Origin: a virus
DNA: 64,000 nt
Reading direction: 5' to 3' (one strand)
Virus record (IMG/VR): IMGVR_UViG_3300022602_001838
Location: 17,548 to 81,547 of that record
The notes below the pieces were generated by a model. The model made no database searches. It was given only the letters and a program-made list of their open reading frames with translations, and was not told the origin of the DNA. Shown in pieces: positions 9,321 to 63,846 of this stretch. Positions within the stretch are counted from its first letter, which is position 1. Each line of letters begins with the position of its first letter. The position numbers and the translations under genes are program-made.

Positions 9321-9688
9321 TAACTGGCCTCGCTACGTCCGTCACCTAGGTTCTTGCGATCAATGACTCGTGGACGAGCATCATATGGTTGATTAGACTC
9401 CCATTGCTCATAGTTTTCCATAGCAATGTTCTTGCAGATAGTTTGGAACCAACGATCAATGATAACATCTTCTGCTTCGTTGGGCTTGCTTTGATAGCCA
9501 GCACGAACTAGATTAGTGATGAATTTCTCATTCCAATCTAATTCAAATGCGCCATTACCCACATTGTCTGGATCAAGTTCAATGCTTATGATAGCAACAT
9601 AGGGTTCACCCGCTTCTGTTGCGATTTCTTTTGCTGTCTTTACAGCTTCTGCTGGTTTCTTAGCAGGTGTTTTCTTTACTGTGGCCAT
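9320..9688 (-). CDS. hypothetical phage protein
   Basis: Likely start MATVKK at 9688, coupled to queE stop; FELDWN motif. Confidence 0.65.
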   Translation of the reverse strand: MATVKKTPAKKPAEAVKTAKEIATEAGEPYVAIISIELDPDNVGNGAFELDWNEKFITNLVRAGYQSKPNEAEDVIIDRWFQTICKNIAMENYEQWESNQPYDARPRVIDRKNLGDGRSEAS

Positions 9689-10536
9689 TAGGTTCCCCAT
9701 TCATTTTTAAATAGCGGCACTTGCAATCGGTCGCTGTAACGCCAACCCTTACGCATTGCCATTTCTGCTACAGCACGATTGTTTAGACCATAGACTGATT
9801 CAACGCCGCCGCAGGGCATTAGATAAACGTGCCCTTTAAAGCCCTCTGCACGATATTCAGCTACAGTATCTTCAATCTCTTGTAAGTCAGTGTCGTGTGC
9901 TATAACAAACTTTAGATACACTGTACCAACATCTTCGTATTCGCAAACGATTTTGGGTCGGATGGCTTCTTCGTGCTTCTCGCCACTAATACTTAGTTTT
10001 GGGCTGACACTGAAAGTAATTTCACGATCTGGTGATTGTGTAGCCCAGCCACGCAAAAAGTTGTAGAAACTTGCGCTGAGTTCCTGTGTGCCATTTGTTT
10101 CAAAGGTCAGTTCTTTTAGTTCTGCCATGAAAGGGTGTGTGAGTAAGTCTGGATAACTGCGTTGCCATCCTAGAAGCGGCTCACCGCCTGTGATAACCAA
10201 GTGCGCATCCTGCCAAGCCCCTCCAGGCAATATATTCCTACAACGATCGGCAATAGCATCAATTGTAAGCATAGGACTAAGGTCCTTAAAATCAGGGTGC
10301 CAACTAGCGTAACTGTCACATCCAGTTTCTGTGAGAGGAAGTTCTTCATATTTTGTGTATAAGTGTTTGACGGTTGCAATATCATCTGCTTCTGTACTTA
10401 GTTGACCCTTGGGCATACCAAAGCCGGCGCACTTGAAATTGCAGCCAAATGTTCTAAGAAACACGCTGGGTACGCCCATATAGCGCCCCTCGCCCTGAAT
10501 ACTATAAAACAATTCTGCGATTTTAATTTTGCTCAT
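9688..10536 (-). CDS. queE: 7-carboxy-7-deazaguanine synthase (radical SAM)
   Basis: ELFYSIQGEG, FLRTFGCNFKC...GCDS, ITGGEPLL, FETNGT, VSPK, RLQ. Confidence 0.92.
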   Translation of the reverse strand: MSKIKIAELFYSIQGEGRYMGVPSVFLRTFGCNFKCAGFGMPKGQLSTEADDIATVKHLYTKYEELPLTETGCDSYASWHPDFKDLSPMLTIDAIADRCRNILPGGAWQDAHLVITGGEPLLGWQRSYPDLLTHPFMAELKELTFETNGTQELSASFYNFLRGWATQSPDREITFSVSPKLSISGEKHEEAIRPKIVCEYEDVGTVYLKFVIAHDTDLQEIEDTVAEYRAEGFKGHVYLMPCGGVESVYGLNNRAVAEMAMRKGWRYSDRLQVPLFKNEWGT

Positions 10537-33197: not shown

Positions 33198-33735
33198 AAG
33201 AATATTTAGCGCGGAATGTAGCGTATAGGCTATATCTACTGGAATCTTTGACTGGATTAAGCATACCGTGTGGTAATCGTCTGTTGCAAATAGTTATGTA
33301 ACCTGAATTTGGTACGAAAGCACAAGTATGTCTGCCTTTAGTAGTATACCAAGTAGTGCCAATATATGGGTCTAGACTTTGAATATAGACCTGAAAATGT
33401 GCATATACAACATTATCATCTTCGTGGAATGGAATCATATAACCAGGATCGTCACGCCAGACTCTGACCTGATTGCATTGTATGTTTTGATTGTCTAGTA
33501 GTTCAATGATACCAGACATATCAACTGAGGTCAATTCTTCTAAGATGCCATCATTGACCCAAGTCAATTCTTGTCTTAAATTACTTGCTGTACTTTGTAC
33601 AAATGCTTCTTGGTCTAGCCCAAGCACAGTTTGTTTGATGTATTCAAAATCAGCAGAGTCAAAAAATTGACCAACACTCCATAGCCCATCGTCCAAAGGT
33701 ACTACGTCTGATAGATTTAACTTGAGTTTTTTCAT
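33196..33735 (-). CDS. 2OG-Fe(II) oxygenase
   Basis: HED...H...RYS. Confidence 0.7.
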   Translation of the reverse strand: MKKLKLNLSDVVPLDDGLWSVGQFFDSADFEYIKQTVLGLDQEAFVQSTASNLRQELTWVNDGILEELTSVDMSGIIELLDNQNIQCNQVRVWRDDPGYMIPFHEDDNVVYAHFQVYIQSLDPYIGTTWYTTKGRHTCAFVPNSGYITICNRRLPHGMLNPVKDSSRYSLYATFRAKYS

Positions 33736-34694
33736 TAGAATAAGTCTGGGTTTTGGTCAGCAAAGTCACGCATCAACACACCCGCTTGTGCGTTGGCTTC
33801 GTTCTCGATCTCACTGCCAGTATCACCGTCGCCTGGTTGAATTCTGTCTTCTTCACGTTGTTTGTGATGTGTGAGTTCGTGACCCAATGTTCGCAGCATA
33901 TCCATGATATGACGATCTCGGTATGCTACTTGTACGGTATTTGTATTTGGATCAAATAGACCAAATGTTGGATGTTCTGTAGAACCAATCTCTGCTACAA
34001 GTTTAATCTTTGGTAGTCGTTTAATACCCAAAGATTTAACGCAGTGTTTGACAAAGTTGTTGCCAACTCGATGTAGGTCTGGCTCGGCAGATTCTTTTAA
34101 GTGTTCTTTTTGGAATGTGTCAGCAAAGGCCTTACACATTTTTTCAATATCTGGATTGTTTGTGAAGCGAATATCAAAGTCGTTGTGCTCAACTTCTTGA
34201 TGTTCTGGATCACGGTATCCGCAATAGACCACTTTAACAGGAGTAGTTTCAATCAGTTCGTTGCAGCTAATGCCCTGTCTGTCTGGCATATCATCTACAC
34301 AAGGACTCAGTGTAGTAACAATCACAGCATCTTCGGGTATCTCGCCATACATACTCTTGAACTTGTCTAGTGCTCTGCGTTCAGCATGTGCCCACTTACC
34401 TTCAAAATGGCTAGTGGCGCAGACCTTTTTACCGTCGCCGATTACCGCAGCAGCAACAAGTCCACTACCACTGTCTTTGCGTTTGTTTTTGATGATCAGA
34501 TCGCAGAGTTCTACTAGAACATCATCATAATCAGTTTCTTGTGATTCTGCTAGATCAAATGCTTTGAGATTCTTTTGTATCTGTCCTGGACGAACATCCT
34601 TGGTCAGACTCATACTATAACGAGGGTCTTTAGCTTGTGATTTCGTAGCAATCACGCCAGTACCACCAGCCTCAAACAACTCGTAGATATTCAT
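33735..34694 (-). CDS. modular protein: zinc deaminase plus HExxH metallopeptidase
   Basis: MNIYELFEA; HAE..TLSPC..C (RibD/CDA-like); TLGHELTH..E.EAN. Confidence 0.75.
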   Translation of the reverse strand: MNIYELFEAGGTGVIATKSQAKDPRYSMSLTKDVRPGQIQKNLKAFDLAESQETDYDDVLVELCDLIIKNKRKDSGSGLVAAAVIGDGKKVCATSHFEGKWAHAERRALDKFKSMYGEIPEDAVIVTTLSPCVDDMPDRQGISCNELIETTPVKVVYCGYRDPEHQEVEHNDFDIRFTNNPDIEKMCKAFADTFQKEHLKESAEPDLHRVGNNFVKHCVKSLGIKRLPKIKLVAEIGSTEHPTFGLFDPNTNTVQVAYRDRHIMDMLRTLGHELTHHKQREEDRIQPGDGDTGSEIENEANAQAGVLMRDFADQNPDLF

Positions 34695-35134
34695 TTCAAG
34701 ACGCTTCTTAACATCCAGCTGTGTTTGCGATGTGCGTCCATACGCTCTGCTAAGAAGTTGCTGAATCCGTGTTCACCTTCTGCCTCAGCAACATCATAGA
34801 CCATCTTTAACAAGATGCACATTTTGTCGCTGTCTTCTAGCAACATAGTGACCATAGCACCATCTGGGATGACTTCGGTTTGGTCTTCAATACGAGTAAG
34901 AACACTCAACTTGCTCAAACTACCTGGAGCGTAGCAGTCTAAGGCGCGCAACTTTTCAGCAAAGTCATCTATGATGCCATAGACTTCTTCGTAGATGTTT
35001 TTAAATAGTTCGTGGAACTGTTGAAAGTGAACACCTTCGACATTCCAGTGAAACTCGTGTGCCTTAAGATAGAAAGCAAACTCGCTGGCGAATGCGATTC
35101 TGGCTGCTTGCTGTAGTTGTGATAGTTCTTCCAT
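34691..35134 (-). CDS. dps: Dps/ferritin-like protein
   Basis: HEFHWNVEG..F...H..F..IY....D..AE; HRKHSWML; TATAAATA 4 nt before ATG. Confidence 0.88.
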   Translation of the reverse strand: MEELSQLQQAARIAFASEFAFYLKAHEFHWNVEGVHFQQFHELFKNIYEEVYGIIDDFAEKLRALDCYAPGSLSKLSVLTRIEDQTEVIPDGAMVTMLLEDSDKMCILLKMVYDVAEAEGEHGFSNFLAERMDAHRKHSWMLRSVLK

Positions 35135-35141
35135 ACTGTAT

Positions 35142-38100
35142 TTATATAATGTCGTATCCAGCTCGTTTCATAGCATAAAGACGACTTTCCATGATTTCAT
35201 CTTCGTCAAATGGTAACTCTGTTTGCAACTCTTCTGGATCGTGCAACAACTCTTGTGTATGTCCCGGAGTTACCTTCATTGGGGCATTAGCTGGATTTTT
35301 CAATCCTCTGAGCTGACTTATCAAAGCATCTTTTTGGATTGTTAGTCTGGCTTTTTGACTTGAATCATCCCCGTAACTTCCAGGTATTTTATCCAACTGT
35401 TTTTGAATCAATTTGATCTGTTGCTGTAACTGTGTGATTGAGTCGTGATCATTGCTCTTAGCTGGAGCTGCTACTGGTGCTGGGGTAGGATGAACTTGTT
35501 GTTTTAGTTCATCTTTAGCAACTGGTTTGTCCAACTCTTTTCTAATCACTTCACGCTCTTTGCTGTCTTGGTCTTTTTTCTGTTGAACTGGCACATCTGC
35601 GGCACGGACTTTGCTTGGCAAAGTTTGTGTTTTGACTTGATCAACTCGTTGACTCAATCTGCGTAACAAATCTTGTTGCTGTTTGTTAACAGTTTCAACA
35701 CCCTGTAACTCTCGTTCAGTACTGTCTAGTTCTGAGCTTAATGGATCTAGTTGACGCAAAATTTTGTTGACCTGTGCGTAGTTGTCTCTGGTCTGTTTAG
35801 CAACCCCGCTCAAATATCCAAACACTGCGTCTGTATCGCTTTGTGCTTCTGGGTTAGTACGGCGAGCAACTCTGATTAGTTCTTTACCAGCTGGGCTAGA
35901 GATAGCTTCGTTGGTCTTTTGCTTTTGTGGTTGTTGACGTTGTTGTTTGCGTTTTTCTTGTTGAGCAACACGTTTGACCATGTCTTGATACTCATCACCA
36001 TAATCAGCTTCTTGGTCTTTTTTCTTGCTTTCACCCAAGCTGCCCATACCACTACCACCCACTGGGCTAGTTGTGTCTGTGACTGGAGCAATGCCGCCTC
36101 CGCCAAAGCCGCCACCGTATTGATCCTCACGAGTGTAGTTTCCAATTGGCTGCAGGATAAAATCCTCTGCACTTAACTTTTGTCTTGTTGGATCAGCTTC
36201 TGCTTTATGAACATATGTGTCGATGACTCGTTTAGCCATGATGTGATTAACTGCCTTAGCAACTATGATTTTTTTATTACTACGGTGTGGATTATAAATC
36301 ACATTGACTTTTTGATCTGAGTGGAATATTCTAGACTCATCCACTTCGCCTCCTGGACTTGCACTACCCACTTGTTGTCCATCAGAGTTCATAATAAATA
36401 TGGCCTCATTGCGAGCATTGGCAAGTTCTTGAGCCGCTTGAATAGCATCGCCTCCTCCCCAAAATTGACCAAGCATTGTGCCTTGCGCATCTGTTAGATT
36501 GAATGAATCGTCGTCGGTGTCATCGTTGTATTCATTTTCCTGTGGTCTTGCACCGCCTACACGACCTGCATCGTCATTTACAAACACATGGATGTTGCGT
36601 TGATTTGCATATTGCTGTGCGGCATCTAGTGCATCTTCTTCTGAACCATTTATGATATCAATAAGACCACCTTCGCTGTTTGTTAAACTATATTGACCCT
36701 GCGCAAGTCTTTGTTCTTGGTCTGCTGTGCGCTGACTTGTAAACTTGGCTGCATCGGCTTTTGGAGCTGCCTTAGTGCCTGGTAATGGAAGTGGTTTACT
36801 TGTATCACCACGCAGTGCTTTAACAGCATCAACAAATCCTGGATCTGTTTGTTTAATGGTCTGCATATAGCCAATACCAACAGCATTCTTATCACGGTTC
36901 TCGTTATACATACCAAATGCACTACCACGTTCAGTACCATGAGCGCTGAATTTATCAGCAAACTGTTCCAAGGTACTTCGTTTTGTTGGGAACATTTCGA
37001 GGCGTAAGAAGTTTTCTGGTGCTGCCGAAGCAATATTTTCTTTTGTTGCTGTAGCAAATCCACTATCTGCTAACAATCGTTCGCGGGCACTTGGATCTGG
37101 TACAACTTTGACAGTTATTCTACCAGTCCCGTAGTTAGATTTTGCCCAATATTTGGCAGCTTCTATTGCTTGTTCTGGTGTGCTACCACGAGTCGTAACA
37201 ACATCAACAAAACGAACTGGAATACCACGAGCCGCAATAGAACGAATATCAGTTAATGCCAATTTATCAGAGTTTGAAACTTCAGGAGCTTTCATCATCT
37301 TGACCAACTTACCAACATATTCATCACGATAGGCAGTTGGATCACTTGCGATAATCATGGCACGAACAAAACGGCCCACTGTGTTGGCAATATCTGCTGC
37401 CTTGCTCAAATAGTCACCACCTGCGTGTCTGAATGAAACATACTTGCCGTTAAAGTTGACTGTGGCAAAGTGATCGTCGCTGATGCGTTTGACCATCTCT
37501 TTCATTTCTTTTTCTGCGTCTTTGAATGTGGTAGAACCAACAGTTGGCAAACTACCGTTGCCCTTTAGATTATTGATAACACTGCGAGCATAGCTGTTGT
37601 TTTCACGACCAAACTGTTTCAACACATAGTTGTCACCAATGAATGTTGCCAACTTTAGCACATCAAGTTTGTCCGGAATACTGACATTGATGTGTAGGCC
37701 AGTAGAGTTGTTGGTATAGAAGTTTAACTGTTGTGCTTTCTGATACCATGTGCGTAGTGCTGTCATTGCAGCATCTGCCTTCAGTGGGGGACTAACAACC
37801 TCTGCTGCATAATCGCCCTGATTTGGGCGCAAGCTACCGTCTGGTTCAATATACCAACGGTCAAGTTTCTTTGTTGCTTGGTGATACCCTCGGAAGATTT
37901 CCATGTTGTCACCAAACACATCTTTAAGATTTGCCTTCAAAAACTCAGCGCCGTCCATGTAATCGCCACTGTGGCTACTGCGTCTGCGTGGTGCTAAACT
38001 TGCTGGTTCAGCGGCCCCGGGAGTAACATAGTACCAAAGTTTTTCTTTTAGAGTGTCTGTGTTGTTATTAACGCGACCTTTGAATGCCCACTTGGTCTTT

Positions 38101-39146
38101 AACAAGTCTTTGAGATTGTCTGTGCCCATTGTTTCTGTGCAAAAATCAGCAAAGTGTTGTTTAAATTTATTAAGAAGTTCTGGAGTTTGCTCTTGTCTAT
38201 AACTCCAGCCTGGAATATATTCACTGTAAAATTCATCTCTGCGACCATCTTCGGCGTTAGCAACTTGACTGCAACGACCGTCCACTGGACCAGTAGTAAC
38301 ACGATAGCAATGAAGCATTGCATCTTTGATTTGTGTGATTACTTCGGGGGTCAACGCACTTTTTGCAACACGGCCACTGAAATCAATATCAGTATAATCT
38401 TTGAGAACTCTGATGACAAAATCACGAGCGTTGACATCCACGGGATTACCCTCTGCGTCTCTGCCATATCTGCGTTCAGCGTCACCGTTCATAAAATAAG
38501 CCGTCATATTTTTGAACTCACGGTCTTTTAACAGTTTTTTTAATTTTTCTAAGATTGGGCTGCCTCTTTCGTCATTTGCTATAAGGTCCCTGACTTTTGT
38601 TTCTGCCCAATTTCTATAGTGCGCCCAAACGCTTTTGTACCCACCAGATGCAACCTGAACGCTGCTTTTATACTTGAACAAGTCATCAAAGACTTTTTGA
38701 AATTTATCGCTACCATGTGCGGTACGCAGAATACCATCTATCAAATCGTTTGTGGTCTTGCCCTCAATCCATGTAATACTGTTTGGATCATAGCCCGCTG
38801 GCACTTCTTGTGGGCCCTCTTTCCATGCTTTTACAGTTCGTACTGGAATCAGTGTTTCAAACTCAAAACCAACCAACACACCTTTTTCAGCACCCTGACT
38901 AATAGCCTGAGCAAACGCTGAGGGGTTCATGGCTACTTCGTCAATATTGTCTTCTGTGACAGCCTCTTCTTCCATACTGCCGATTGGACTAACATCATTG
39001 TCTGTGCCCCAAGTAGCACTGACGCCATTGCCATCAGCCAATGCACCATCGATGCCGTTATTCTCTTGAACACCCATCATTAGACCATTAAAGTCTTCGG
39101 CTAGTGTGTTCTTCTTGGTGCCTTCAAATAATGTGTATAAGTTCAT
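35142..39146 (-). CDS. large modular protein with putative amidoligase (COOH-NH2 ligase) domain
   Basis: GFEFE, IEPDGSL, AEVVSPP, TNNSTGLHINVS, SFRHAGG; MNLYTLFEG start. Confidence 0.75.
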   Translation of the reverse strand: MNLYTLFEGTKKNTLAEDFNGLMMGVQENNGIDGALADGNGVSATWGTDNDVSPIGSMEEEAVTEDNIDEVAMNPSAFAQAISQGAEKGVLVGFEFETLIPVRTVKAWKEGPQEVPAGYDPNSITWIEGKTTNDLIDGILRTAHGSDKFQKVFDDLFKYKSSVQVASGGYKSVWAHYRNWAETKVRDLIANDERGSPILEKLKKLLKDREFKNMTAYFMNGDAERRYGRDAEGNPVDVNARDFVIRVLKDYTDIDFSGRVAKSALTPEVITQIKDAMLHCYRVTTGPVDGRCSQVANAEDGRRDEFYSEYIPGWSYRQEQTPELLNKFKQHFADFCTETMGTDNLKDLLKTKWAFKGRVNNNTDTLKEKLWYYVTPGAAEPASLAPRRRSSHSGDYMDGAEFLKANLKDVFGDNMEIFRGYHQATKKLDRWYIEPDGSLRPNQGDYAAEVVSPPLKADAAMTALRTWYQKAQQLNFYTNNSTGLHINVSIPDKLDVLKLATFIGDNYVLKQFGRENNSYARSVINNLKGNGSLPTVGSTTFKDAEKEMKEMVKRISDDHFATVNFNGKYVSFRHAGGDYLSKAADIANTVGRFVRAMIIASDPTAYRDEYVGKLVKMMKAPEVSNSDKLALTDIRSIAARGIPVRFVDVVTTRGSTPEQAIEAAKYWAKSNYGTGRITVKVVPDPSARERLLADSGFATATKENIASAAPENFLRLEMFPTKRSTLEQFADKFSAHGTERGSAFGMYNENRDKNAVGIGYMQTIKQTDPGFVDAVKALRGDTSKPLPLPGTKAAPKADAAKFTSQRTADQEQRLAQGQYSLTNSEGGLIDIINGSEEDALDAAQQYANQRNIHVFVNDDAGRVGGARPQENEYNDDTDDDSFNLTDAQGTMLGQFWGGGDAIQAAQELANARNEAIFIMNSDGQQVGSASPGGEVDESRIFHSDQKVNVIYNPHRSNKKIIVAKAVNHIMAKRVIDTYVHKAEADPTRQKLSAEDFILQPIGNYTREDQYGGGFGGGGIAPVTDTTSPVGGSGMGSLGESKKKDQEADYGDEYQDMVKRVAQQEKRKQQRQQPQKQKTNEAISSPAGKELIRVARRTNPEAQSDTDAVFGYLSGVAKQTRDNYAQVNKILRQLDPLSSELDSTERELQGVETVNKQQQDLLRRLSQRVDQVKTQTLPSKVRAADVPVQQKKDQDSKEREVIRKELDKPVAKDELKQQVHPTPAPVAAPAKSNDHDSITQLQQQIKLIQKQLDKIPGSYGDDSSQKARLTIQKDALISQLRGLKNPANAPMKVTPGHTQELLHDPEELQTELPFDEDEIMESRLYAMKRAGYDII

Positions 39147-40231
39147 TTCGTTTGTCCTGGAACAGGGTTCTGCTGTGCAGTATTTGTGCTTTGTTGTGGT
39201 TGTTGACCCGCTGGCTGATTGGTACCAGTTTGTTGCTGTGCCTGTTGAACTTTAAGTTCTTTTTGCTTGTCTACTGTATCTGCTTTGGTAATCAACTGTT
39301 TCATTTGTGCAGCAGTCTGTGGGTTTTGCAAGGCCTTGCTTGTAGCAACTGCCAATGGTTCCATTTGCTTTAACTCTTGTGCATTTAAATCAGTGTTTGG
39401 CTTGTCATCAAGTTTAGTCATAGTATCACTGAACTTGACTTTATTTAATGGCTGCGCTGCACCCTGTTGATTTAATGCTGTAGATAACTGATTGGTATTC
39501 TTTTGAATCTGTTGCTGATCCATTTTCTGTTGTTGAGCTTTTGGATCGGGATTTTGATTTGTACTACCTTGTGGGGCTTGACTAGCAGCACCATAGCCAC
39601 CAGTGCCACCATACTCGTTCAAGTCTTCTTTATCTTGCCACCAGTATTTTTGACCTGCCTGCGTAGCTTTGGTTGGACGAGCTTTTGCTTTTGGACCACG
39701 ATAGCCACGTTCCCATGCTGCTGCACCTGCTGCTGCTGATTTGCCCTGTTTAACAAAGTGAGCAATCACTGCCTGCTTGCTGTCTAGTTCTTCTGCTATG
39801 AGTTGATTTATAAATGACTCGTTGATTTCGACTGGCATCATCTTACAAACTTCTTTTTTGGTCTCTATCTTAGCACTGGGCACACGTTGTTTCAACATCA
39901 TCAAGTCTTGTTCTGCTTGTCCAAGATTGTTATATTTTGACGCTGGCTTATCATTTACATAAAGAACAAACTCGTCTGCACTTTCTTTAAACTCTTGGAA
40001 CTCACGCATTAATTGATGTGCGTTGGTACGAGGATTCTCTACTAGTGCTTTTTCTAGGTCTTTGATAATGCTTTCTTCTGCACTGCCACCAACCATTTTG
40101 TTCTTGGCCTGGCTTGCTTTGTCAGTGCCTTTCCAGTATCCAGGAAACTTTGGACCCGTTGGCTTCTTAGTATCGCTTTTCATACTTTCGTCAATGCGGG
40201 CTAACTTGCCCAACAGGTCTCGCATACTCAT
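39143..40231 (-). CDS. modular Q-rich hypothetical protein (probable virion protein)
   Basis: Many hydrophobic-x-E sites (IDES, FKES, INES, LNEY); Q-rich C-terminus. Confidence 0.6.
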   Translation of the reverse strand: MSMRDLLGKLARIDESMKSDTKKPTGPKFPGYWKGTDKASQAKNKMVGGSAEESIIKDLEKALVENPRTNAHQLMREFQEFKESADEFVLYVNDKPASKYNNLGQAEQDLMMLKQRVPSAKIETKKEVCKMMPVEINESFINQLIAEELDSKQAVIAHFVKQGKSAAAGAAAWERGYRGPKAKARPTKATQAGQKYWWQDKEDLNEYGGTGGYGAASQAPQGSTNQNPDPKAQQQKMDQQQIQKNTNQLSTALNQQGAAQPLNKVKFSDTMTKLDDKPNTDLNAQELKQMEPLAVATSKALQNPQTAAQMKQLITKADTVDKQKELKVQQAQQQTGTNQPAGQQPQQSTNTAQQNPVPGQTK

Positions 40232-41418
40232 CTTTTAATCATCCCTGATTTCTTTGGCTTTTTGGCTTTGAATGGACTGTTCTTTTGGCTATAGTTACCA
40301 CCAAACAATGTACCAACATTGCTGCCTTTACCAACGCTCATAGATGTAGCAATACCACCAGCACCGCCACCTGCACTGGCAAACTCCATCAATTTGCTTT
40401 CAAACATCTCAGCATAGTCTGGGCTTTCCTTCATACCAGGATAGCGCTGTTTGCCGGGCTGTCCTTCGTTGCCATCATCACGAATTGGATGTGCTTCGTC
40501 ACTGTAGTTGCCTCTTGGCATTTTTTGCGCCACACTTTGCTTTTGTAGATAAGCATAGTTGGTTACCAGGTCGCCTGGAAAGTCTTCGTTATACGTAAAT
40601 AACATACGAGCACGACGGTCACCTAGTTCATCACGAGCAATAGTATATGCCGCTCCTAATACTTCTTCAGCAGAACCTGACGAAACTAAATTGGGATTTT
40701 CATTAAAGACTTGTTGTGCCAACTGTTCTGCATAATTAGAGCCTTCCGCCACACCTTGATCGCCTTTGATAGAAAAAGGTTTCATTCCCATTTTCTGTCT
40801 AAGCACATTGATTTCTTGTATGGTTCTGAACTCACCATCTTGACATTTCAAACGCATAGGTTCATTCTCGTCCCACGATGTGAATTTTCCGCGTTTGTTT
40901 ATTGCCGGGGTAGCACTAGCACGGCCATCCAATCCTTCCGTCATGCCTTGTTCAAACATACCAGATTGGCCACGATGCATTTCTTTTTCGCTGATCAAAT
41001 ACTGCATAACGCTGGTCAACATACCTTTGGCAGCGCCCATCTTTTCTGCTACCCATTCAGGAATATCATCATCGGCACTGATATTTTTGTTTAAGTACAC
41101 TGCCACGCGGTGTATGGTGTGTAGGCTGTTTTTAAATGTAGAACCATCATGCTCGGGTTCGCCGATGAATTCTTCGCCCACGCCTTGCTCACCAAGCCCA
41201 TGTACTCTCAACGACTTCTCGTAATGAGATTCTTCATCGTTTGCTGGCTCATCGTCAAAATCATCAAAATCCCCATCAAATTCTTCTTCATCGTGATTGC
41301 CGTGCAAATCGTTGTAATAATCTTCATCACTGTCATAGTTATGAGGATTGATTTCATTGACGGTCTTGATAGATTCTGTCATCAATTTATTAATGTTAAA
41401 AAGATCGTTGGTTTTCAT
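40228..41418 (-). CDS. modular hypothetical protein with QGxxEG linkers
   Basis: QGVGEE, QGMTEG, QGVAEG; CATAAATA upstream. Confidence 0.65.
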   Translation of the reverse strand: MKTNDLFNINKLMTESIKTVNEINPHNYDSDEDYYNDLHGNHDEEEFDGDFDDFDDEPANDEESHYEKSLRVHGLGEQGVGEEFIGEPEHDGSTFKNSLHTIHRVAVYLNKNISADDDIPEWVAEKMGAAKGMLTSVMQYLISEKEMHRGQSGMFEQGMTEGLDGRASATPAINKRGKFTSWDENEPMRLKCQDGEFRTIQEINVLRQKMGMKPFSIKGDQGVAEGSNYAEQLAQQVFNENPNLVSSGSAEEVLGAAYTIARDELGDRRARMLFTYNEDFPGDLVTNYAYLQKQSVAQKMPRGNYSDEAHPIRDDGNEGQPGKQRYPGMKESPDYAEMFESKLMEFASAGGGAGGIATSMSVGKGSNVGTLFGGNYSQKNSPFKAKKPKKSGMIKR

Positions 41419-42566
41419 ATTATTTTATCCGTGTTAGCGTATTTATGCGAAAAACAATCCGCCGCCTCTGACATTGACTTCCCCGTTTATAGTCATATTT
41501 TGTGTGTAAAATACTGGGTCAGAGTTACATTCACGCACATACAATCTGTGCGCCCCTGGTTCAATATTAATTTCGATGTGTTCTCTAATGAATACATCGT
41601 ATGCAGCCCAAGTCCAACTGCGTTCTGTGAGCATTTCATCATCAACATAGATGCGGTAGCTGGGCTGGCCTTCGCTACGACTGCAATAAACATCCACAGT
41701 TAAACTTACTGCTGCCATTATTTTGCCTTCTTCATACCAGCAATCAAGGCAAGCTCTTGATCAATACTTTGGACCACGCTTTCTGTCAGACCTTGCTTAT
41801 GAATGAATCCACGACTATTTTGTGGAACATTTGTGGTGCAAAACTTGCCGCATACTTTGCCAGTTTTGTCAGTAGCGTGATGAGTCCACTCTAGATCATT
41901 TTTTGGTTTAATAACATTCAACCCTTGCGATTTTGCGTCATCTGTCCAAGATTTCAAATCTCGGTGCAACACTCTGCCTTCTGCCACACCTTGCTTGATG
42001 CTTTTAAGAATAGATTTAGCCTGGGTGCTAGAATCATATGAGCCAATTTGAGTGTTGACTCTTCCCATTGCTTGGAGAATTTTTCCATCGGCAGCATAAT
42101 GAGTGACCTTGCCACCTTTTACTCTGAACAATATGCCGCGAAAACTATAAATGCCATCCGGTTTGCTTACTGACTTATCAATAATTAAATTTACATTATC
42201 GTTATCTAACACCCCGTACTGGATTTTGCCTTCCGCCACACCTTGCTCCCAAACTTTAGAACCAGCACCTTTATTCTTGTCCCAGAAATGTGAGCCGGCA
42301 TCTGTTTGGTGTTGACTACGATTGATTCTAAAGCCTTTTGCTTTGAGCATATCATACACTGTTTGAGCGATGCCTTGCCCTCTGTATTCAGGTGTTACAG
42401 ACATATCCTGTGCTTCAAGATCATGGCCAAGCATATCAAATGTAAAGCCTGCCACTTGTTTTCCGCCCAATGTAACATCAACATAAAGTTCTTCACCTGC
42501 TGTTTCTATGTTGAATTTCATCTTGGGTTTGACGAATTTGTCCAATAAGCCTTCCGCCAAGCCGCC
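40741..42566 (-). repeat. dispersed 18-bp coding repeat CAAGGTGTGGCGGAAGGC (QGVAEG)
   Basis: Exact at 40741-40758 and 42228-42245; one mismatch at 41976-41993; degenerate at 40933, 41170, 41778, 42549. Confidence 0.85.
41443..41718 (-). CDS. hypothetical beta-rich protein
   Basis: P.YRIYVDDE; resembles 43196-43672. Confidence 0.6.
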   Translation of the reverse strand: MAAVSLTVDVYCSRSEGQPSYRIYVDDEMLTERSWTWAAYDVFIREHIEINIEPGAHRLYVRECNSDPVFYTQNMTINGEVNVRGGGLFFA

Positions 42567-43169
42567 GCCCAAATACTTGTCTAGTATTTGTCTTGCCACT
42601 GCTGGATTGCGAGGATACAGGTCTGCGATAATGGCATTCTTTTGTGCATCATCTGCTTGTGGCCACATTGTGCGTATTTGTGTAGCACTGGTTACTCCAC
42701 TGGGGCCTGCATCAAACTGTACAGTTGGCAAGTAGACCATGTAACCATGTTGACTCATTGGAGCAAGATTGCCCTTGTGATATGGTTGTAGATAACTGGG
42801 AGTACCGTCTTTTTTGACACCACCTGCCCCTGGTGGTTCATTGCGATCTTTTTCGCTACGTGCAAAGATCAACACAGTATTATCAGGATCGTATTGACCA
42901 GTAACTTCTTTTGCTACAAAAGGGCTTTTTACCAGTTGGAAGTTCTTGGGGTTCACACCAGCGATCTGAGCAAGTTTTTGCTTTTCGGCAAATGGAAAAG
43001 GACGATCTTTACGGTCGTCCGTTGCTACATAAACGATGTGTGCTCCTGGGAATGCTTGCTCTGCTGCTCGGTACAAGCTCAAGTGTCCGGGGTGAAATGG
43101 GTGAAAACCCCCTGGGATTAAGACCAGGGTTTGTTTTTGCTGTGCTTCAAAAAGATCAAGAATGAACAT
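41718..43169 (-). CDS. modular protein: HxGH nucleotidyltransferase, GNAT and two unknown modules
   Basis: MFILDLFEA; PGGFHPFHPGH and SATQIR; VTPEYRGQGIA; linkers GLAEG, QGVAEG twice, QGLTES. Confidence 0.8.
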   Translation of the reverse strand: MFILDLFEAQQKQTLVLIPGGFHPFHPGHLSLYRAAEQAFPGAHIVYVATDDRKDRPFPFAEKQKLAQIAGVNPKNFQLVKSPFVAKEVTGQYDPDNTVLIFARSEKDRNEPPGAGGVKKDGTPSYLQPYHKGNLAPMSQHGYMVYLPTVQFDAGPSGVTSATQIRTMWPQADDAQKNAIIADLYPRNPAVARQILDKYLGGGLAEGLLDKFVKPKMKFNIETAGEELYVDVTLGGKQVAGFTFDMLGHDLEAQDMSVTPEYRGQGIAQTVYDMLKAKGFRINRSQHQTDAGSHFWDKNKGAGSKVWEQGVAEGKIQYGVLDNDNVNLIIDKSVSKPDGIYSFRGILFRVKGGKVTHYAADGKILQAMGRVNTQIGSYDSSTQAKSILKSIKQGVAEGRVLHRDLKSWTDDAKSQGLNVIKPKNDLEWTHHATDKTGKVCGKFCTTNVPQNSRGFIHKQGLTESVVQSIDQELALIAGMKKAK

Positions 43170-43195
43170 ATTATACGCCTATAGCGTATTTATGC

Positions 43196-43672
43196 TCACA
43201 TTGTTTCTAGAAGCCAGATGTAGAAGGGGTTGGTCCAAGTCAAAGACCAAGCACCGTTCCAGCCCATATTCACACATTTGTTGATGGTCTGAGTAGTTTC
43301 GCCTTTGTAAACCACTGGCATCTTGGTTGTATAAACCCCGTGATCGTAAGGAATCATACCTAGATCAATCTCATCAATCTCAACGCTGACAACATTCAAC
43401 AGCATATCTGCTACGATTGTATAGTTGTCGGGATCAGTGTCATTGTCTTTTTTAGTGTCTGAGGGTTCTTTGTTCAACAACTCAACTTTGAGTGTGGCAT
43501 TGTCAGTGGTGTACTCTACATCAAACTCGTGATATTCGACTACCCCTGTTTCTGCCTGTACGCTACCCTCAGACAACACAGCTTCATTGAAGCTGATACG
43601 ATACTGGGGACGTTTGTCCCAGTACGTACCACTCAGACCCAGTTTGATGTGAATCTTTTCTAGGTCTGCCAT
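43196..43672 (-). CDS. hypothetical protein
   Basis: 158 aa; PQYRISFNE; ends PFYIWLLE. Confidence 0.6.
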   Translation of the reverse strand: MADLEKIHIKLGLSGTYWDKRPQYRISFNEAVLSEGSVQAETGVVEYHEFDVEYTTDNATLKVELLNKEPSDTKKDNDTDPDNYTIVADMLLNVVSVEIDEIDLGMIPYDHGVYTTKMPVVYKGETTQTINKCVNMGWNGAWSLTWTNPFYIWLLETM

Positions 43673-44793: not shown

Positions 44794-45534
44794 TTATTGG
44801 AGGTGATCTATGGGGTGAATTTTTCCTACGATGCCAGGACTAATCAATGATAAAATAGTTGCAATACTGTCATCGTTTGCGTAGATGTATGCTCCCCAAA
44901 GGGCTGGATACTTTTTCTTTAGATGTGTCAGTACACCTCCTGGGATTTTAACATCATCTCGGGCGGTTAACTGTGCCAGAATACTTCGTTTGGTTTCTAA
45001 TGGGTAATTTCCGTCTCGCAACACAATCTTGTATTTGTATTCCGTTTTGTTCAGAAACACCACATTGTTGCGCAACGCATCTTCTGTGCCAGGTTTGGGT
45101 ATGTTGATACTATACAAGTTGTCGTAAGAACTGATAGCTTCACTTATGATCTTTAGATCATATTCTGTTTCAGCATATACTTGTAGCATATTGCCCTCAG
45201 TTCTAAACTTGACTATGTGTTTGTGTGTTTTAATCACAGTGCGAACACGGTCAATCAAAAACTCATCAACATCATCCCAGTTAATATAAGGGTTGTAGGT
45301 ATAATTATTACTAGATTGATAGAAACCGCGATAGCCCATGCCTGCGTTGCCACTATTAGCAGCAAGTCTATGCTTTATAACATAGGCAACGATATCCTCA
45401 CAAAACTTGTCAGTGGCTAGATTTACCTTTTTTATATCATACACCAACCGCCACAAGTAGCGGTTGAAGTATTGTTTTTTGGTAGTCTCTAGCTTGATAT
45501 TGTGATTTAGATTAACCCAATACGATGAATCCAT
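44794..45534 (-). CDS. hypothetical phage protein
   Basis: About 246 aa; start uncertain; overlaps clpA end. Confidence 0.6.
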   Translation of the reverse strand: MDSSYWVNLNHNIKLETTKKQYFNRYLWRLVYDIKKVNLATDKFCEDIVAYVIKHRLAANSGNAGMGYRGFYQSSNNYTYNPYINWDDVDEFLIDRVRTVIKTHKHIVKFRTEGNMLQVYAETEYDLKIISEAISSYDNLYSINIPKPGTEDALRNNVVFLNKTEYKYKIVLRDGNYPLETKRSILAQLTARDDVKIPGGVLTHLKKKYPALWGAYIYANDDSIATILSLISPGIVGKIHPIDHLQ

Positions 45535-47803
45535 TTTCATCCACTTGAGGTTGATGGGTAGTAATCGTACTGAATTCAAACTTGTCATCGTTGAAATCAA
45601 TTTCGACTGTGTTGTTTGGAGCGATGCCTTCGAACAAGATTTTCTTGCTCAATGGAACTTTGATTAGTTCGTTGATCTTACGACCCAACGGACGAGCACC
45701 CATCTTGCTGTCATAACCAACTGTGGCCAGATGATCAACTGCTGCTTCGCTCAAACGAACTCTTATACCCTTTTCAGATAACAAGTCGTTGAGTTCGTTG
45801 ATAAACTTGGCAACGATTTTCTTGACACTGAATGTATCCAACTTGTTGAACTTGCAGATAGCATCAATACGATTGCGGAACTCTGGCTTAAAGTAGTCTT
45901 TGACTGCTTTGTCATCTTCGCCACTGCGCTCAAGATCACGACCAAAGCCGATTGCATTACGCTCATTAGCGGCAGCACCCAAGTTACTAGTCATAATAAT
46001 GATAGCATTACGAGCATCTGCTTTTTTACCACTGCTGCTTGTGACTGTACCTTCATCCATCAGACTCAGCAACACATTGCTAACGTCTGGGTGAGCTTTT
46101 TCGATCTCGTCAAACAAGATGATACTATTTGGATTCTTTTCCAAATCACTGATCAACAGGCCACCACCCAAGTTGCCGTCATCATAGCCAACATAGCCAG
46201 GGGGCGCACCAATCAGTTTGGCTGCTGTGTGTTTCTCTTGATATTCGCTCATATCATAGCGAACAAGTTTCATACCCAAGTTGTCAGCAAGCAATTTAGC
46301 CAGTTCTGTTTTACCAGTACCTGTTGGACCCAAGAACAAGAAACTTCCAATGGGCTTGTTCACAGATTTCAACCCAGCACGACTGACATAAATCTTTTCA
46401 AGCACATTCTCAACGACCTGATCTTGACCATAGAGCTTAGTGCGAATGTTTGATTCGAGGCTTTCTAGACTCTTGACTGCTTCGCTGCCAATCTGCTCTG
46501 CTGGAATCTTGACTGCTTTGGCAATAGCTTCAACGATGTTGCTTTTCTCACAGACTCGTTGACCTTGCACAGAGATTTTGAGTTTGGCACAGGCAGTGTC
46601 GATCAGGTCAATTGCCTTGTCTGGCAAACGTTTGTCTGACTGATAACGTACACTCAGATCCACTGCTGCATCAATGGCTTCGTCTTCAATCTGAACTTCG
46701 TGGAATTTTTCAAAGTGCTCACGCAGACCACGCAAGATTTCTTTTGACACTGTGGGAGTGGGCTCATCTACGCCCAAACGATAGAAACGGCGCATTAACG
46801 CACGATCTTTTTCAAAACTTTGGTTATATTCTTCCCACGTTGTACTTGCGATGACCTTGATAGTGCCCTTAGTCAATGCTGGCTTAATCATATTGGCAAA
46901 GTCAACTGAACTTTGTGCACCACTGCCAGCACCCTGCATTTGATGTGCTTCATCAATGAACAAGATACACTTGCCTTTTACAGTCAGTGCCTTGATAACA
47001 TCTTTGAACTTTTCTTCAAACTCACCACGATACTTCGAACCAGCCAACAATGAACCAATGTCCAAGTTGTAAACGTGATAGTCACGCAGATAATCTGGTA
47101 CGTTGAGTTGAACAATGTTCAAGGCTAAGCCTTCTGCAATAGCAGTTTTACCCACACCAGGATCGCCCACCATCAAGACATTTGACTTGTTGCGTTTGGC
47201 CAGAACGTGTGTGATTTCTTCAAGTTCGTATTCACGACCGATCACTGGATCAATCTTGCCTTCAAGTGCCAACGCATTCAAATCAGTACAATACTCATTT
47301 AGAATGTCTGTGGCCTTTTTGTCATTGGCTGTTTTACGACCAGTTTTTGCGTTGTAGAAGTGATTGTAGTATTCAATGAGTTCATCACGGTCTTCGATAC
47401 CATATTTCAACAAGAAGTAAGCAGCCTGACTGTTTGTTTCTTGACTGATACTGATGACCAAATCGATCACAGTCAGACTACGGCGAGACGAGAACAAGAC
47501 CTGTGTCAGCGCACGATTTAGCACACGCTCAACGCTGTGAGTTCTGCGCGGAGTTGTATTTTCTTCGCTGATTAAGAATGTTTGCTGGGCCAGATAAATT
47601 TCGACGTCCTGAGACATTCCCTGAATATCGACTCCATAGTTGTCCAGAAGTTTACCGAATGGTTCATAAGTGATGATACCATACAGAATGTGTTCCAGAG
47701 TTACATATTCGTGATTATAGTATTTGGCCTTTGCGGTGGCCGAATCGATGATTACTTCGATTTCGGGATTGGGTTGGATCATCTTATCGTTTTCCGTTGA
47801 CAT
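45512..47803 (-). CDS. clpA: ClpA ATP-binding subunit
   Basis: N-domain; GDPGVGKT; GPTGTGKT; RLPDKAIDL; IGF loop; no ClpB M-domain; TATAAATA upstream. Confidence 0.9.
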   Translation of the reverse strand: MSTENDKMIQPNPEIEVIIDSATAKAKYYNHEYVTLEHILYGIITYEPFGKLLDNYGVDIQGMSQDVEIYLAQQTFLISEENTTPRRTHSVERVLNRALTQVLFSSRRSLTVIDLVISISQETNSQAAYFLLKYGIEDRDELIEYYNHFYNAKTGRKTANDKKATDILNEYCTDLNALALEGKIDPVIGREYELEEITHVLAKRNKSNVLMVGDPGVGKTAIAEGLALNIVQLNVPDYLRDYHVYNLDIGSLLAGSKYRGEFEEKFKDVIKALTVKGKCILFIDEAHQMQGAGSGAQSSVDFANMIKPALTKGTIKVIASTTWEEYNQSFEKDRALMRRFYRLGVDEPTPTVSKEILRGLREHFEKFHEVQIEDEAIDAAVDLSVRYQSDKRLPDKAIDLIDTACAKLKISVQGQRVCEKSNIVEAIAKAVKIPAEQIGSEAVKSLESLESNIRTKLYGQDQVVENVLEKIYVSRAGLKSVNKPIGSFLFLGPTGTGKTELAKLLADNLGMKLVRYDMSEYQEKHTAAKLIGAPPGYVGYDDGNLGGGLLISDLEKNPNSIILFDEIEKAHPDVSNVLLSLMDEGTVTSSSGKKADARNAIIIMTSNLGAAANERNAIGFGRDLERSGEDDKAVKDYFKPEFRNRIDAICKFNKLDTFSVKKIVAKFINELNDLLSEKGIRVRLSEAAVDHLATVGYDSKMGARPLGRKINELIKVPLSKKILFEGIAPNNTVEIDFNDDKFEFSTITTHQPQVDENGFIVLG

Positions 47804-47819
47804 GGGTCCTCACAAATAT

Positions 47820-48668
47820 TTATAGAGTTGATTTGATTTTGTTTACCAGTTCCAGCTGCTCTTGTGAGAGATTTCTTGGAACAGTAACGTTGATTTTAAC
47901 AATTAAATTGCCTCTTGTCGAGCCGTGAAGTGCCCAAATACCCTGATTTTTCACTCTGAGCATTTGTCCGGGCTGTGTGCCTGGGGGAACTGTAATAATA
48001 AGTTTACTGCCCTCAAAATTGGTCACTTCAATATCTCCGCCAGTGATTGCTGTCAAACAGTCAATGTCGTGGAACGTGCCCACATCCTGCTCCATAACTT
48101 CAAAGTTTGGGTGTGGCTGCATAATAATCTGCACGTACAGATCACCACGAGTAAGAGTGTCAAAGAAGTTATCACCCAATCCTGGATACTTGATTTGGGT
48201 ACCCTGGACTGCGCCTCTGGGCACAGTGATTTCTACGTTCTCTCTGGTACCTTTTGTGGTCTGTATGCTGACTGTGACATTTTGGTCTTCCATAATACTG
48301 GCCAGTGTCACTGCTACTCTGACCTGTAAATCTTTGTTGCGTCTGGGTTGGTGTTGTCTGAATGGATTTTGCCCACCAAAGTTGAAACCAAAGTTGCGCA
48401 ACATTTCTTCCATATGCGGTGGCATACCATCGTGTATGTCGTGACCATTTACATTGAATCTGAATCCACCGGGATTGCGGCGTTCGTGGTCATACTGCTC
48501 ACGCTGTGCTGGATCACTCAGAACCCTGTAGGCACCTTCAATCTCTTGGAACTTGGCAGTGTCCCCGCCCTTGTCTGGATGATGCTGACTGGCTAACTTG
48601 CGATAAGCTCGTTTGATTTCTTCTGGTGTGGCATTCTCACCAACGCCCAGTGTATTATAGTGTGTCAT
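47820..48668 (-). CDS. dnaJ: class B J-domain protein (DnaJ/CbpA-like)
   Basis: HPD motif, G/F region, C-terminal domains, no Zn finger. Confidence 0.88.
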
Positions 48669-62852: not shown

Positions 62853-63233
62853 TTATTCAGTCACAGTTTCTGTGGTTTCGTCTTTATTAGCATCCAATTC
62901 TGCTTGCATTTCGTCAAGCATTGAGTTCATATACTCGGCATCCAACTGTGTCATCACTGTGGTGACATATTTGTGGTAGCCCATGAAGTAGTGCTTGAAG
63001 TATTCGTCAAAACTACGAGCCGTCCCCCAACTGTTACGATCCACAGATTTCTTGGAGAGATTAAGAATGACCTTAGACATCGAACTGTTTTTCTTAAGTC
63101 CGCGGGTGATTTCAATCGATTCATCGTAAGTGATGTTGGCAAAATCCGCCATCCAACCCTTCTGGGAAGTATTAACTCCGGGTCTAGGTTTAAGATGGTA
63201 GAATGCCACAAGATAAATGTCCTTATTTTTCAT
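62853..63233 (-). CDS. hypothetical phage protein
   Basis: 126 aa. Confidence 0.6.
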   Translation of the reverse strand: MKNKDIYLVAFYHLKPRPGVNTSQKGWMADFANITYDESIEITRGLKKNSSMSKVILNLSKKSVDRNSWGTARSFDEYFKHYFMGYHKYVTTVMTQLDAEYMNSMLDEMQAELDANKDETTETVTE

Positions 63234-63846
63234 TGATTTTATGTTCTTTCAAATATTGTTTTATTGATTCTGGAATTTCAGTTACTGAGTTACTTTTTCT
63301 AACATTATCAGCGTAAGGTAATAGTTGTAAGTTTTCAATGGATGACACGAGTTCAATTGGGACATTGTACTTAAATGCTTCTGCTACTGGGTATTTGTGA
63401 TCCAGATGATAAACATTTTCGCCAAATAACCCAATGATATGATTGTCTGGGTTCAAAGTTTCCTTGTTTTTTCTATATGTATAGTTTGATCTGGTAACAA
63501 TGCGGCTTCTGTATTTTCTAAAATCTGAATAGATAGGATCATCAGACGGGATGATTTTTCGCATCTGCTCCTCTGCAATCTTTTTCTGTGCTTCTGATAC
63601 TGCTTTCATGCCCGGGTGAGTATCTTTTGTCAACCCTTTGTTCCAAGCAACAATATCTTGCTGTGATTTTGTCTTCTTATTAGATTCGCTTATTTTTTCA
63701 GACCAAGTACAAGTTCTTCCTCTATTACCATCCCCATTGATTTTCTTCATAGCTGGACATTTTGATACCCAGCTGCTGCAAATCTTTTTTCCATTTTTTT
63801 GAGTATGTGTTGCAGGGTTACCACAACCAAAAGCACAAAGTTCCAT
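63223..63846 (-). mobile_element. HNH homing endonuclease-like protein
   Basis: N-terminal C..GC, AWNKGLTK NUMOD-like motif, HLDHKYP...NLQ....DN..K. Confidence 0.75.

Follow-up and report, generated by a model that had tools for sequence, protein, structure and literature searches.

The internal proteins of phage T4 are made with propeptides of 10–19 residues that target them to the core, positions 4 and 7 mattering for targeting and positions 8 and 10 for processing; the protease gp21 cuts after L/I-x-E, and Alt is also trimmed at its C-terminus (PMC9026906; what is credited here to papers with PMC numbers refers to parts of those papers). Among the ejection and inner-body proteins of phiKZ, 201phi2-1 and SPN3US many are cut by the prohead protease after Glu at several sites, and the propeptides are thought to serve in targeting (PMC5694885, PMC9026906). 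Polyvalent proteins join two to 15 unrelated conflict-type domains in one phage or plasmid polypeptide (Iyer et al. 2017, PMC5512222). Here we analyse a block of minus-strand open reading frames (ORFs) at positions 33735–43169 of a 64,000-nt stretch of viral DNA (the window), which represents bases 17548–81547 of the 81.5-kb virus record IMGVR_UViG_3300022602_001838; the estimated completeness of this record, 23%, corresponds to a genome of ~350 kb. Three ORFs of the block (319, 396 and 483 aa) are strings of independent modules behind a short leader. On balance we consider it probable that they are cargo polyproteins of a T4-related lake phage which are loaded into the head, cut and delivered with the DNA; packaging, cutting and injection are proposed on the strength of the T4 precedent and of the gene content of relatives.

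The pattern used for candidate processing sites was [LIVM]-x-E-[SGA]. In the 483-aa ORF (41718–43169) such sites follow residues 8, 206, 313, 397 and 463. The chain begins with an 8-residue leader resembling a capsid-targeting sequence, MFILDLFE|A (43146–43169), which is followed by a nucleotidyltransferase module (residues 9–206, 42552–43145) with the HxGH-type motif GGFHPFHPGH and a Pfam match to CTP_transf_like (residues 18–99, E = 3.1e-5). Joint 1, GGGLAE|G (residues 201–207, 42549–42569), leads to a GNAT acetyltransferase module (residues 207–313, 42231–42551) in which RGQGIA is readable and residues 225–280 match GNAT families (E = 2.6e-4 and 1.3e-3, both under the Pfam cut-offs). Then come joint 2, QGVAE|G (42228–42245), spelt CAAGGTGTGGCGGAAGGC; an 84-aa module of unassigned fold (residues 314–397, 41979–42230); joint 3, again QGVAE|G (41976–41993), spelt CAAGGTGTGGCAGAAGGC with one synonymous change; a 66-aa module (residues 398–463, 41781–41978); and joint 4, QGLTE|S, with a 20-residue helical tail SVVQSIDQELALIAGMKKAK (41721–41795; predicted helix 463–482). 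The sites of the 319-aa ORF (33735–34694) follow residues 8, 50 and 201, giving the leader MNIYELFE|A (34671–34694), a 42-aa module (34545–34670) that ends in LAE|S, a deaminase (34092–34544; dCMP_cyt_deam_1, residues 62–159, E = 5.7e-7; HAE and PC..C readable), LKE|S and an HExxH peptidase (33738–34091; HELTH), the sole Pfam match of which is DUF6782, a putative metallopeptidase, with an E-value of 0.023 that is below the cut-off. Unrelated conflict-type domains are thus found in single chains: deaminase with HExxH peptidase in one case, nucleotidyltransferase with GNAT and two further modules in the other. The 396-aa ORF (40228–41418) starts with MKTNDLFN, has a 15-residue leader ending in MTE|S and no known domain; its joints are QGMTE|G (40933–40950) and QGVAE|G (40741–40758, the same 18-mer as joint 2), followed by MKE|S and MFE|S sites. 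A first-pass annotation of the window had quoted the ORF starts MNIYELFEA, MNLYTLFEG, MFILDLFEA, MKTNDLF and MSMRDLL, and had given the order of the hydrophobic-x-E sites in 33735–34694 and 41718–43169; both descriptions proved exact on the minus strand, including the lengths of the 84-aa and 66-aa modules.

Across the five leader-bearing ORFs (2894 aa) we count 19 sites, whereas the site frequency in the contig's remaining 23094 aa predicts 7.77 (Poisson P = 4.6e-4) and composition-keeping shuffles give 8.05 (P = 6e-4). The first-pass proposal had been made dependent on the sites being commoner here than in other phage proteins, and they are commoner than in the rest of the contig proteome. 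Three ORFs, of 483, 396 and 319 aa, account for the excess (13 sites in 1198 aa; for the 396-aa ORF, 5 sites versus 1.66 in shuffles, P = 0.024), and an unbiased count places QGVAE and GVAEG among the most-repeated 5-mers of the contig proteome. It had also been expected that the sites would fall in linkers between folded domains. AlphaFold models built on alignments of the relatives' module pieces agree with this for all three sites of the 319-aa ORF and for the first two of the 483-aa ORF. In the 319-aa model a deaminase (54–195; best structure matches, TadA and RibD chains) and an HExxH domain (205–319) are confident, and the predicted local distance difference test (pLDDT) is <50 only at 1–16, 23–36, 40–53 and 196–204 (55 of 319 residues), which include every site. 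The 483-aa model is confident at 9–203 (best Foldseek matches, NadD/NMNAT chains, E = 6e-6) and 215–291, and the sites after residues 8 and 206 lie in the low-confidence stretches 1–8 (pLDDT <50) and 204–214. Because the alignment is shallow and the model weak past residue 291, the 84-aa module included, the last three sites of this ORF were judged by borders of homology. Such borders lie ≤5 residues from a site in 14 of 29 distinct cases for the 483-aa ORF (null 3.3, P = 0.004), 7 of 14 for the 319-aa ORF (P = 0.024) and 3 of 6 for the 396-aa ORF (P = 0.022), where P values come from placing the same number of sites at random and the borders are not mutually independent.

Relatives, which are metagenome contigs throughout (labelled L for an IMG/VR locus and G for a relative's record, G000 being the window's own contig), carry the modules in other combinations. 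The 18 IMG/VR loci that encode relatives of the 483-aa ORF match its residues 1–201/208, 203/204–313/316 or 393–463, never across a site, and residues 9–47, 57–194 and 197/201–319 of the 319-aa ORF are found apart. At the position of joint 1, [VIL]-x-E is kept in all seven relatives that reach it (L001, L016, L006, L011, L123, L013 and L007). Relatives of window modules were present in each of the five large records searched (G007–G011): a different polyprotein of G010, for example, holds the 66-aa module (68% identity over query residues 393–463) between two QGVAE|G joints, and a 560-aa polyprotein of G007 starts with MNLNNLFE|A and has QGVAE|G joints. The GNAT module occurs among quite different neighbours in an 873-aa ORF of G005, and a 1274-aa ORF of G004 has 13 predicted sites that would yield 14 pieces of 35–163 aa, most of the sites reading (E/K)-Q-G-[VM]-[AET]-E|G. 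(Genes were called with a simple longest-ORF script and some starts are wrong; the G004 and G005 ORFs, for instance, probably begin at an internal MNLYDL.) Throughout the relatives examined, the cluster retains the HExxH module, recognisable by HELxH and a conserved ExEANAxAG (14 aligned pieces).

At the DNA level, likeness begins and ends at the joints. Over 332 bp spanning one joint to the next, the GNAT module shares 93.7% identity with part of a quite different 906-aa ORF in L007, with no likeness outside; the 78% match to L001 breaks off at residue 202 of the 483-aa ORF and is picked up again at residue 469; and the degree of similarity to L022 shifts at the VDE|S site in the 1334-aa ORF described below. 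In four other lake samples, contigs end or run into unlike sequence at 40738–40762, 41976–41995 (pieces ending at 41976/41978 and 41993/41995), 42228–42257 and, in a contig from another lake sample, 41788; these breakpoints correspond to the three QGVAEG joints plus the QGLTES site. Since the 18-mer is shorter than the 31-letter words of the run index, and Logan contigs are assumed to be built from words that long, branches at the joints should need real alternative neighbours. By these comparisons the joint is a point at which modules are swapped, and it is likely to be a protease site as well. Apparent skips of 195–1707 bases in lake contigs were considered as deletions and rejected: their short side spans 20–47 letters, and a repeated joint there matches two places. 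Summed contig depth within 39143–43169 differs several-fold between adjacent modules (42113–42247 versus 42248–42517); contigs give a poor measure of depth, and the differences would fit modules living in several co-occurring phages.

The commonest joint, (E/K)-Q-G-V-A-E|G, is also fixed as DNA. Nineteen QG[VM][AT]EG joints from seven genes in five records, the proteins of which are 50–70% identical, are spelt almost invariantly CAA GGT GTG GCG GAA GGC. Codon use was compared in 71 joints from 23 genes, these being the ORFs with at least two matches to a widened joint pattern among 1689 distinct ORFs. Joint Val is GTG in 44 of 53 cases against 18% elsewhere in the same genes (Fisher P = 8e-23), joint Ala is GCG in 43 of 57 against 6% (P = 9e-37) and joint Gln is CAA in 44 of 44 against 74% (P = 5e-6). 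The widened pattern was picked after seeing the data, and only tests free of such conditioning (near-matches, reading frame and free third positions) are given weight for the codon lock. All 32 matches to the 18-mer with ≤3 mismatches in six records code the joint in their own frame, 31 of them in the frame of a called ORF and one opposite an ORF that was probably called on the wrong strand; the 159.5 kb of G001 hold no near-match. Information content falls to background again within one codon on either side of the joint. At least 125 IMG/VR stretches contain the exact 18-mer, where a handful at most is expected by chance (a rough estimate from the size of the collection). Examination of 80 of these loci gave 98 exact matches in 97 contexts, and the joint frame was the longest open one for 97 of the 98. 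When two third positions are left free (CAAGGTGTNGCNGAAGGC), 130 of 153 IMG/VR matches read GTG and GCG.

Judging from the variation among these sequences, selection also acts on the protein: P4 is Gly, P3 Val or Met and P1 Glu in all 32 near-matches, P5, P2 and P1' vary, and Glu is written both GAA and GAG. Selection of this kind is real by that comparison, but it cannot account for fixed third positions; we prefer an explanation at the DNA level, namely in-frame recombination. An RNA-level role, translation pausing or a dedicated enzyme that recognises the joint may conceivably lie behind the fixed spelling. The codon-locked QGVAEG joint goes beyond the first-pass annotation, which had missed both the fixation of nucleotides and the swapping. 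Literature searches returned nothing relevant on polyproteins with a prohead protease in jumbo phages, nor on QGVAEG (one unrelated fungal proteomics paper).

Three window ORFs start with M-x-[IL]-x-x-LFE-[AG], and 15-residue leaders in two others end in MTE|S and IDE|S. The T4 capsid-targeting sequence to which they had been likened, MKTYQEFIAE, could be read from T4's own record, in which IPIII and IPII start with MKTYQEFIAE|A and the IPI leader ends in ITE|A; Tyr4 and Phe7 are common to MNIYELFE|A, MNLYTLFE|G and T4 IPIII. A scan for MxxxxLFE starts had been suggested, and leaders do recur on relatives: M-[FYL]-I-x-[ED]-[LM]-FEA is kept ahead of the nucleotidyltransferase in L001–L005 and in L126, where the domain itself is just 31% identical, and is absent from more distant homologues. 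Other leaders of relatives are MRAQEFIIE|N, MRATEFIVE|N, MRFTEFISE|N and MKIKDIIVE|S. In G007 (11 versus 3.1) and G010 (9 versus 2.5), N-termini fit a generic leader pattern clearly more often than shuffled ones do, and capsid and scaffold proteins are among the matches there. Leaderless nucleotidyltransferase homologues (L006, L007, L008–L014 and L016–L017) end in a conserved DY[ILVM][DE]E, in L006 directly after GVAE, which may be an alternative C-terminal tag. Upstream of the window, a 292-aa ORF (G000 contig 9597–10475, plus strand) starts with MRIQEIITE|T, has ATAAATA 8 nt before its start and no Pfam or PHROG match; it may be another leader-bearing cargo gene.

The first-pass annotation had asked for a gp21-like protease, and one is encoded by the relatives. 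In G001 the head genes follow the T4 order (portal, acidic core protein, Peptidase_S77 protease with E = 1.6e-28, scaffold, capsid gene). The G001 scaffold packs 13 sites into 361 aa (background, 2.7 per 1000), the last of them LTE|SVV, and the G001 capsid gene starts with MSQELLES...EALME|G. A Peptidase_S77 protease is present in each of the near-complete relatives G007–G010 (about 345 kb); the protease-holding records span 303–355 kb and three of them are ≥95% complete. G007 has a scaffold with 12 sites and a capsid protein starting MSQELLE|G...EALLE|G, and scaffolds of relatives have 12–15 hydrophobic-x-Glu sites. Genomes of this group therefore combine the S77 protease, its expected substrates and the polyproteins.

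In the proposed mechanism, the leader would act as the T4 capsid-targeting sequence does and direct the polyprotein to the prohead's scaffold core, where a gp21-type (S77) protease would cut after each Glu, removing the leader and freeing the deaminase, zinc peptidase, NMNAT-like nucleotidyltransferase, acetyltransferase and several small modules. Once freed, the proteins would be retained inside the head and pass into the host along with the DNA. Enough identity for in-frame recombination between joints would come from the fixed spelling, so that cargo modules could be gained, lost and exchanged while reading frame and processing site stay intact, and modules flanked by the canonical spelling would spread. 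More tentatively, and as something we would call possible rather than probable, the 18-nt joint may be doubly coded, as a head-protease site and as a codon-locked in-frame docking site for cassettes drawn from a pool of small cargo genes that a population of lake phages would share and that would fit into any polyprotein; in the boldest form of this idea a dedicated nuclease or recombinase would recognise the joint.

Several observations weigh against cargo polyproteins cut by a prohead protease. The 1334-aa ORF, with 3.0 sites per 1000 aa, and the 362-aa ORF, with two sites or 5.5 per 1000 aa, are close to the background of 2.7, and only 1 of 17 and 0 of 3 of their homology borders, respectively, are near a site; because of this density the two are treated here as leader-bearing proteins and not as polyproteins, and the block of modular polyproteins described earlier shrinks to the 319-, 396- and 483-aa ORFs. 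The 1334-aa amidoligase and the 362-aa protein are probably trimmed and not cut to pieces. Beyond residue 291 the 483-aa model has low confidence throughout and is of little use for the last three sites. For T4 gp21, L/I-x-E and few other determinants are described, whereas the joint has mostly Val at P3 and keeps its sequence over P6–P1', a longer stretch than such a protease should need; its fixed synonymous positions mean that some of the conservation lies outside the protein level altogether and that the joint could be a recombination linker which is never cut. The window leaders have 8 residues against the 10–19 given for T4, and the excess of the generic leader pattern is smaller in G000 (3 versus 0.83) and G005 (3 versus 1.2) and nil in G001 (1 versus 1.25) and G004 (2 versus 1.3). 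The contig of the window, a 23%-complete record, has no S77 protease, scaffold or capsid gene, and searches for the S77 protease and Gp23 gave no match in five partial relatives (G002–G006), which as fragments are uninformative on absence; among five partial relatives in one protease search, four had no match. Finally, the HExxH peptidase encoded within the block could do the cutting instead.

This last idea, that the chains are cut by the metallopeptidase of the 319-aa ORF, in itself or within the cluster, would agree with the retention of the module across the relatives examined, with the zincin-like peptidases predicted to process polyvalent proteins (Iyer et al., PMC5512222) and with the length of the conserved joint (P6–P1'), which suggests an enzyme more specific than gp21. 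We nevertheless find it improbable, since prohead proteases of T4-type and giant phages are on record as cutting after Glu with a hydrophobic P3 (PMC9026906, PMC5694885), the G001 lineage keeps the HExxH module yet lacks any QGVAEG near-match in its 159.5 kb, and the Pfam match of the module is weak. A somewhat stronger case, though one we still regard as rather unlikely, can be made for multidomain 'polyvalent' fusions, packaged or not, that stay uncut and in which the joint serves as flexible linker and in-frame recombination site. Fixed synonymous codons denote selection or homogenisation of DNA that a protease site has no use for, module exchange at the joint is directly seen, some phage polyvalent proteins are transferred at full length (Iyer et al., PMC5512222), and cutting is a step that we infer. 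Uncut fusions would, however, leave unexplained why P1 Glu and P3 Val/Met are invariant in 32 of 32 near-matches while their neighbours vary, why joints without the 18-mer (LAE|S, LKE|S, LAE|G and LTE|S) are still hydrophobic-x-Glu and still at domain borders, and why the leaders end in the same motif as that repeated in the relatives' scaffolds.

The location of the block, amid genes for replication and metabolism (DNA polymerase, asparagine-synthase-like, glycosyltransferase and ClpA-like) and not beside head genes, could also indicate late cytoplasmic enzymes of nucleotide, NAD or DNA-modification metabolism that are never packaged, with the leader as a translation or stability signal; in G007, too, the polyprotein cluster (76–89 kb) is far from the head module (219–236 kb). 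But the T4 internal-protein genes are likewise away from the head genes, beside denV, e and tRNA genes in the T4 record, and the leaders resemble the T4 capsid-targeting sequence, end in a protease motif and share their pattern with capsid and scaffold proteins of relatives, so that we strongly doubt a purely cytoplasmic role. Chance, or chimeric assembly of metagenomes at a short repeat, appears very improbable indeed. It is true that every relative is a metagenome contig and that a repeated 18-mer with similar flanks could mislead a short-word assembler; against this stand the excess of sites (P = 4.6e-4), the open frame in 97 of 98 matches, the branches in four lake samples, which need real alternative neighbours if 31-letter words are assumed, and the same architecture in records of 300–355 kb, one of them with terminal repeats.

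The cargo polyproteins, read in this way, resemble T4 IPI, IPII, IPIII and Alt, which leave the head together with the DNA, in their short leader, which ends in hydrophobic-x-Glu before a small residue and shares Tyr4 and Phe7 with IPIII, and resemble the T4 internal proteins more widely in the T4-type protease, scaffold and capsid of the relatives, in the position of the genes off the head module and in their diverse and fast-changing cargo. They differ in that T4 cargo consists of single small proteins with one cut (two in Alt), whereas here several unrelated enzymes and mini-modules are chained, with up to five sites per ORF (up to 13 in a relative) and a fixed DNA spelling. The joint is a conserved nucleotide motif that borders variable modules and has breakpoints inside it; it thereby works like known exchange linkers, which is no sign of shared descent with them. 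The PeSL cassettes of T4-type phages are reportedly conserved intergenic promoter-terminator elements that border variable modules, with exchange nearby; unlike them, the joint lies in frame within an ORF. The glycine-rich motifs of the gp38 adhesin are also short, conserved and placed at the borders of variable modules, with exchange in or near them, but their presumed role is as the structural core of a single protein, whereas the joint connects independent domains in frame and also matches a protease site (PMC3157838).

Polyvalent proteins are similar in that unrelated effector-type domains share one phage polypeptide, are predicted to travel with the DNA and are mosaic, and the domains described include deaminase, GNAT, nucleotidyltransferase and zincin-like peptidase (PMC5512222; cited in PMC7824862). 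They are dissimilar in the self-processing by a peptidase domain that was proposed for them; a prohead-protease joint, a T4-type leader and a nucleotide-fixed linker were not found in the portions of PMC5512222 drawn on here, and 'amidoligase' is absent from its main text. The phiKZ-type proteins belong to another lineage, with an (S/A/G)-x-E site of small P3 and propeptides of >100 residues, and shuffled enzyme modules and a fixed joint are not described in the parts of PMC5694885 and PMC9026906 that were considered. Neither a prohead-protease joint linking shuffled enzyme modules nor an in-frame linker fixed at the nucleotide level was found described in the portions of the cited literature used. 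If our preferred reading is correct, T4-related giant phages load into the head, as polyproteins, a changeable enzyme kit: a deaminase of nucleic acids or nucleotides, a NAD-pathway-like adenylyltransferase, an acetyltransferase, a peptidase and an amidoligase. The internal-protein idea of T4 would then widen from a few small inhibitors to modular delivery, pointing to many putative activities in host takeover or counter-defence; the codon-locked joint would offer a rule, found in nature, by which such cargo can be assembled and exchanged, and could serve phage heads engineered as protein carriers. Should the joint be doubly coded, it would constitute an in-frame gene-cassette system for injected proteins that preserves the frame along with loading into the head and processing.

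The two remaining leader-bearing ORFs of the block lie between the polyproteins. The 362-aa ORF (39143–40231) is of low complexity, starts with MSMRDLLG and has the leader MSMRDLLGKLARIDE|S; it is a weak member. The 1334-aa ORF (35142–39146) has the leader MNLYTLFE|G (39123–39146), an amidoligase core (residues 390–623, 37278–37979; Amidoligase_2, residues 408–492, E = 4.1e-5), two repeated units of ~55 aa, a Lys/Gln-rich region, a final IME|S site and a conserved 14-residue tail (35145–35186). A C-terminal tail of 14–15 residues, E[ST]RL..MK.AGYD.., stands right after hydrophobic-x-Glu in this ORF and in large ORFs of L002, L004, G004 and G005, and recalls the C-terminal trimming reported for T4 Alt (PMC9026906). 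A Dps/ferritin-like gene within the block (34691–35134), syntenic in L001–L005 and L022, has neither leader nor sites. Two leaderless ORFs of 91 aa (41443–41718) and 158 aa (43196–43672), both on the minus strand, flank the nucleotidyltransferase polyprotein and keep their places in L001–L014; neither has a family match, and a protein atlas gives only unnamed viral clusters for the 158-aa ORF. No match was found in PHROGs for the five block ORFs, nor in Pfam for the 362-, 396-, 91- and 158-aa ORFs.

TAAATA late-promoter words had been noted upstream of 43169, 41418 and 35134, and were found at all three starts. The T4-late-promoter-like word CATAAATAC is at 43186–43194, 17 nt before the 483-aa ORF, and at 41439–41447 before the 396-aa ORF; TATAAATAC precedes the Dps/ferritin-like gene, with TATAAATA at 35139–35146 (all on the minus strand). 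ATAAATA words are 17–30 nt ahead of two polyprotein genes and the Dps-like gene. CATAAATAC occurs three times in the window against 0.69 expected, a number reached in 2 of 100 shuffles; the contig contains ATAAATA 22 times, counting both strands, and 10 of its 110 called ORFs have the word in the 45 nt before their start. ATAAATA is also ahead of many large structural-looking genes of relatives (43 ORFs in G010 and 30 in G007). Two large ORFs preceded by late promoters, G007 270618–273080 (plus strand, 820 aa) and G010 36199–38994 (minus strand, 931 aa), have 11–12 sites and match a PHROG annotated as virion structural protein; the former has a near-exact QGVAEG joint, one synonymous letter from the 18-mer.

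Other genes of the window, identified with PHROGs, encode a T4-type family-B DNA polymerase, a ClpA-like ATPase, queuosine-pathway proteins, an endolysin and PhoH. The polymerase is 71% identical to that of G007 and 70% to that of G001, the nearest cultured giant phages being Sinorhizobium Phosso (52%), Agrobacterium Atu_ph07 (48%) and Cronobacter GAP32 (44%). Among 50,697 phage records there was no near-identical DNA. Weak and partial matches were all that tblastn against these records turned up, the amidoligase core hitting Ralstonia RsoM2USA and Agrobacterium Atu_ph07 and the nucleotidyltransferase hitting Microcystis Mel-JY01. Searches for related loci with the 319-aa ORF and with the 1334-aa ORF returned one locus each. 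No RNA sequencing run is listed as containing the stretch; at least nine freshwater or lake metagenome runs from different studies contain most of it. The highest density of [LIVM]xE[SGA] on the contig (four sites, 19 per 1000 aa) is that of a 207-aa ORF at 63223–63846 (minus strand), which has a AATAAATA word upstream and matches PHROG 5104, of unassigned function. A ClpA-like two-ring AAA+ ATPase of 763 aa (45512–48668, minus strand) adjoins a DnaJ-like protein and is kept upstream of the block in all relatives.

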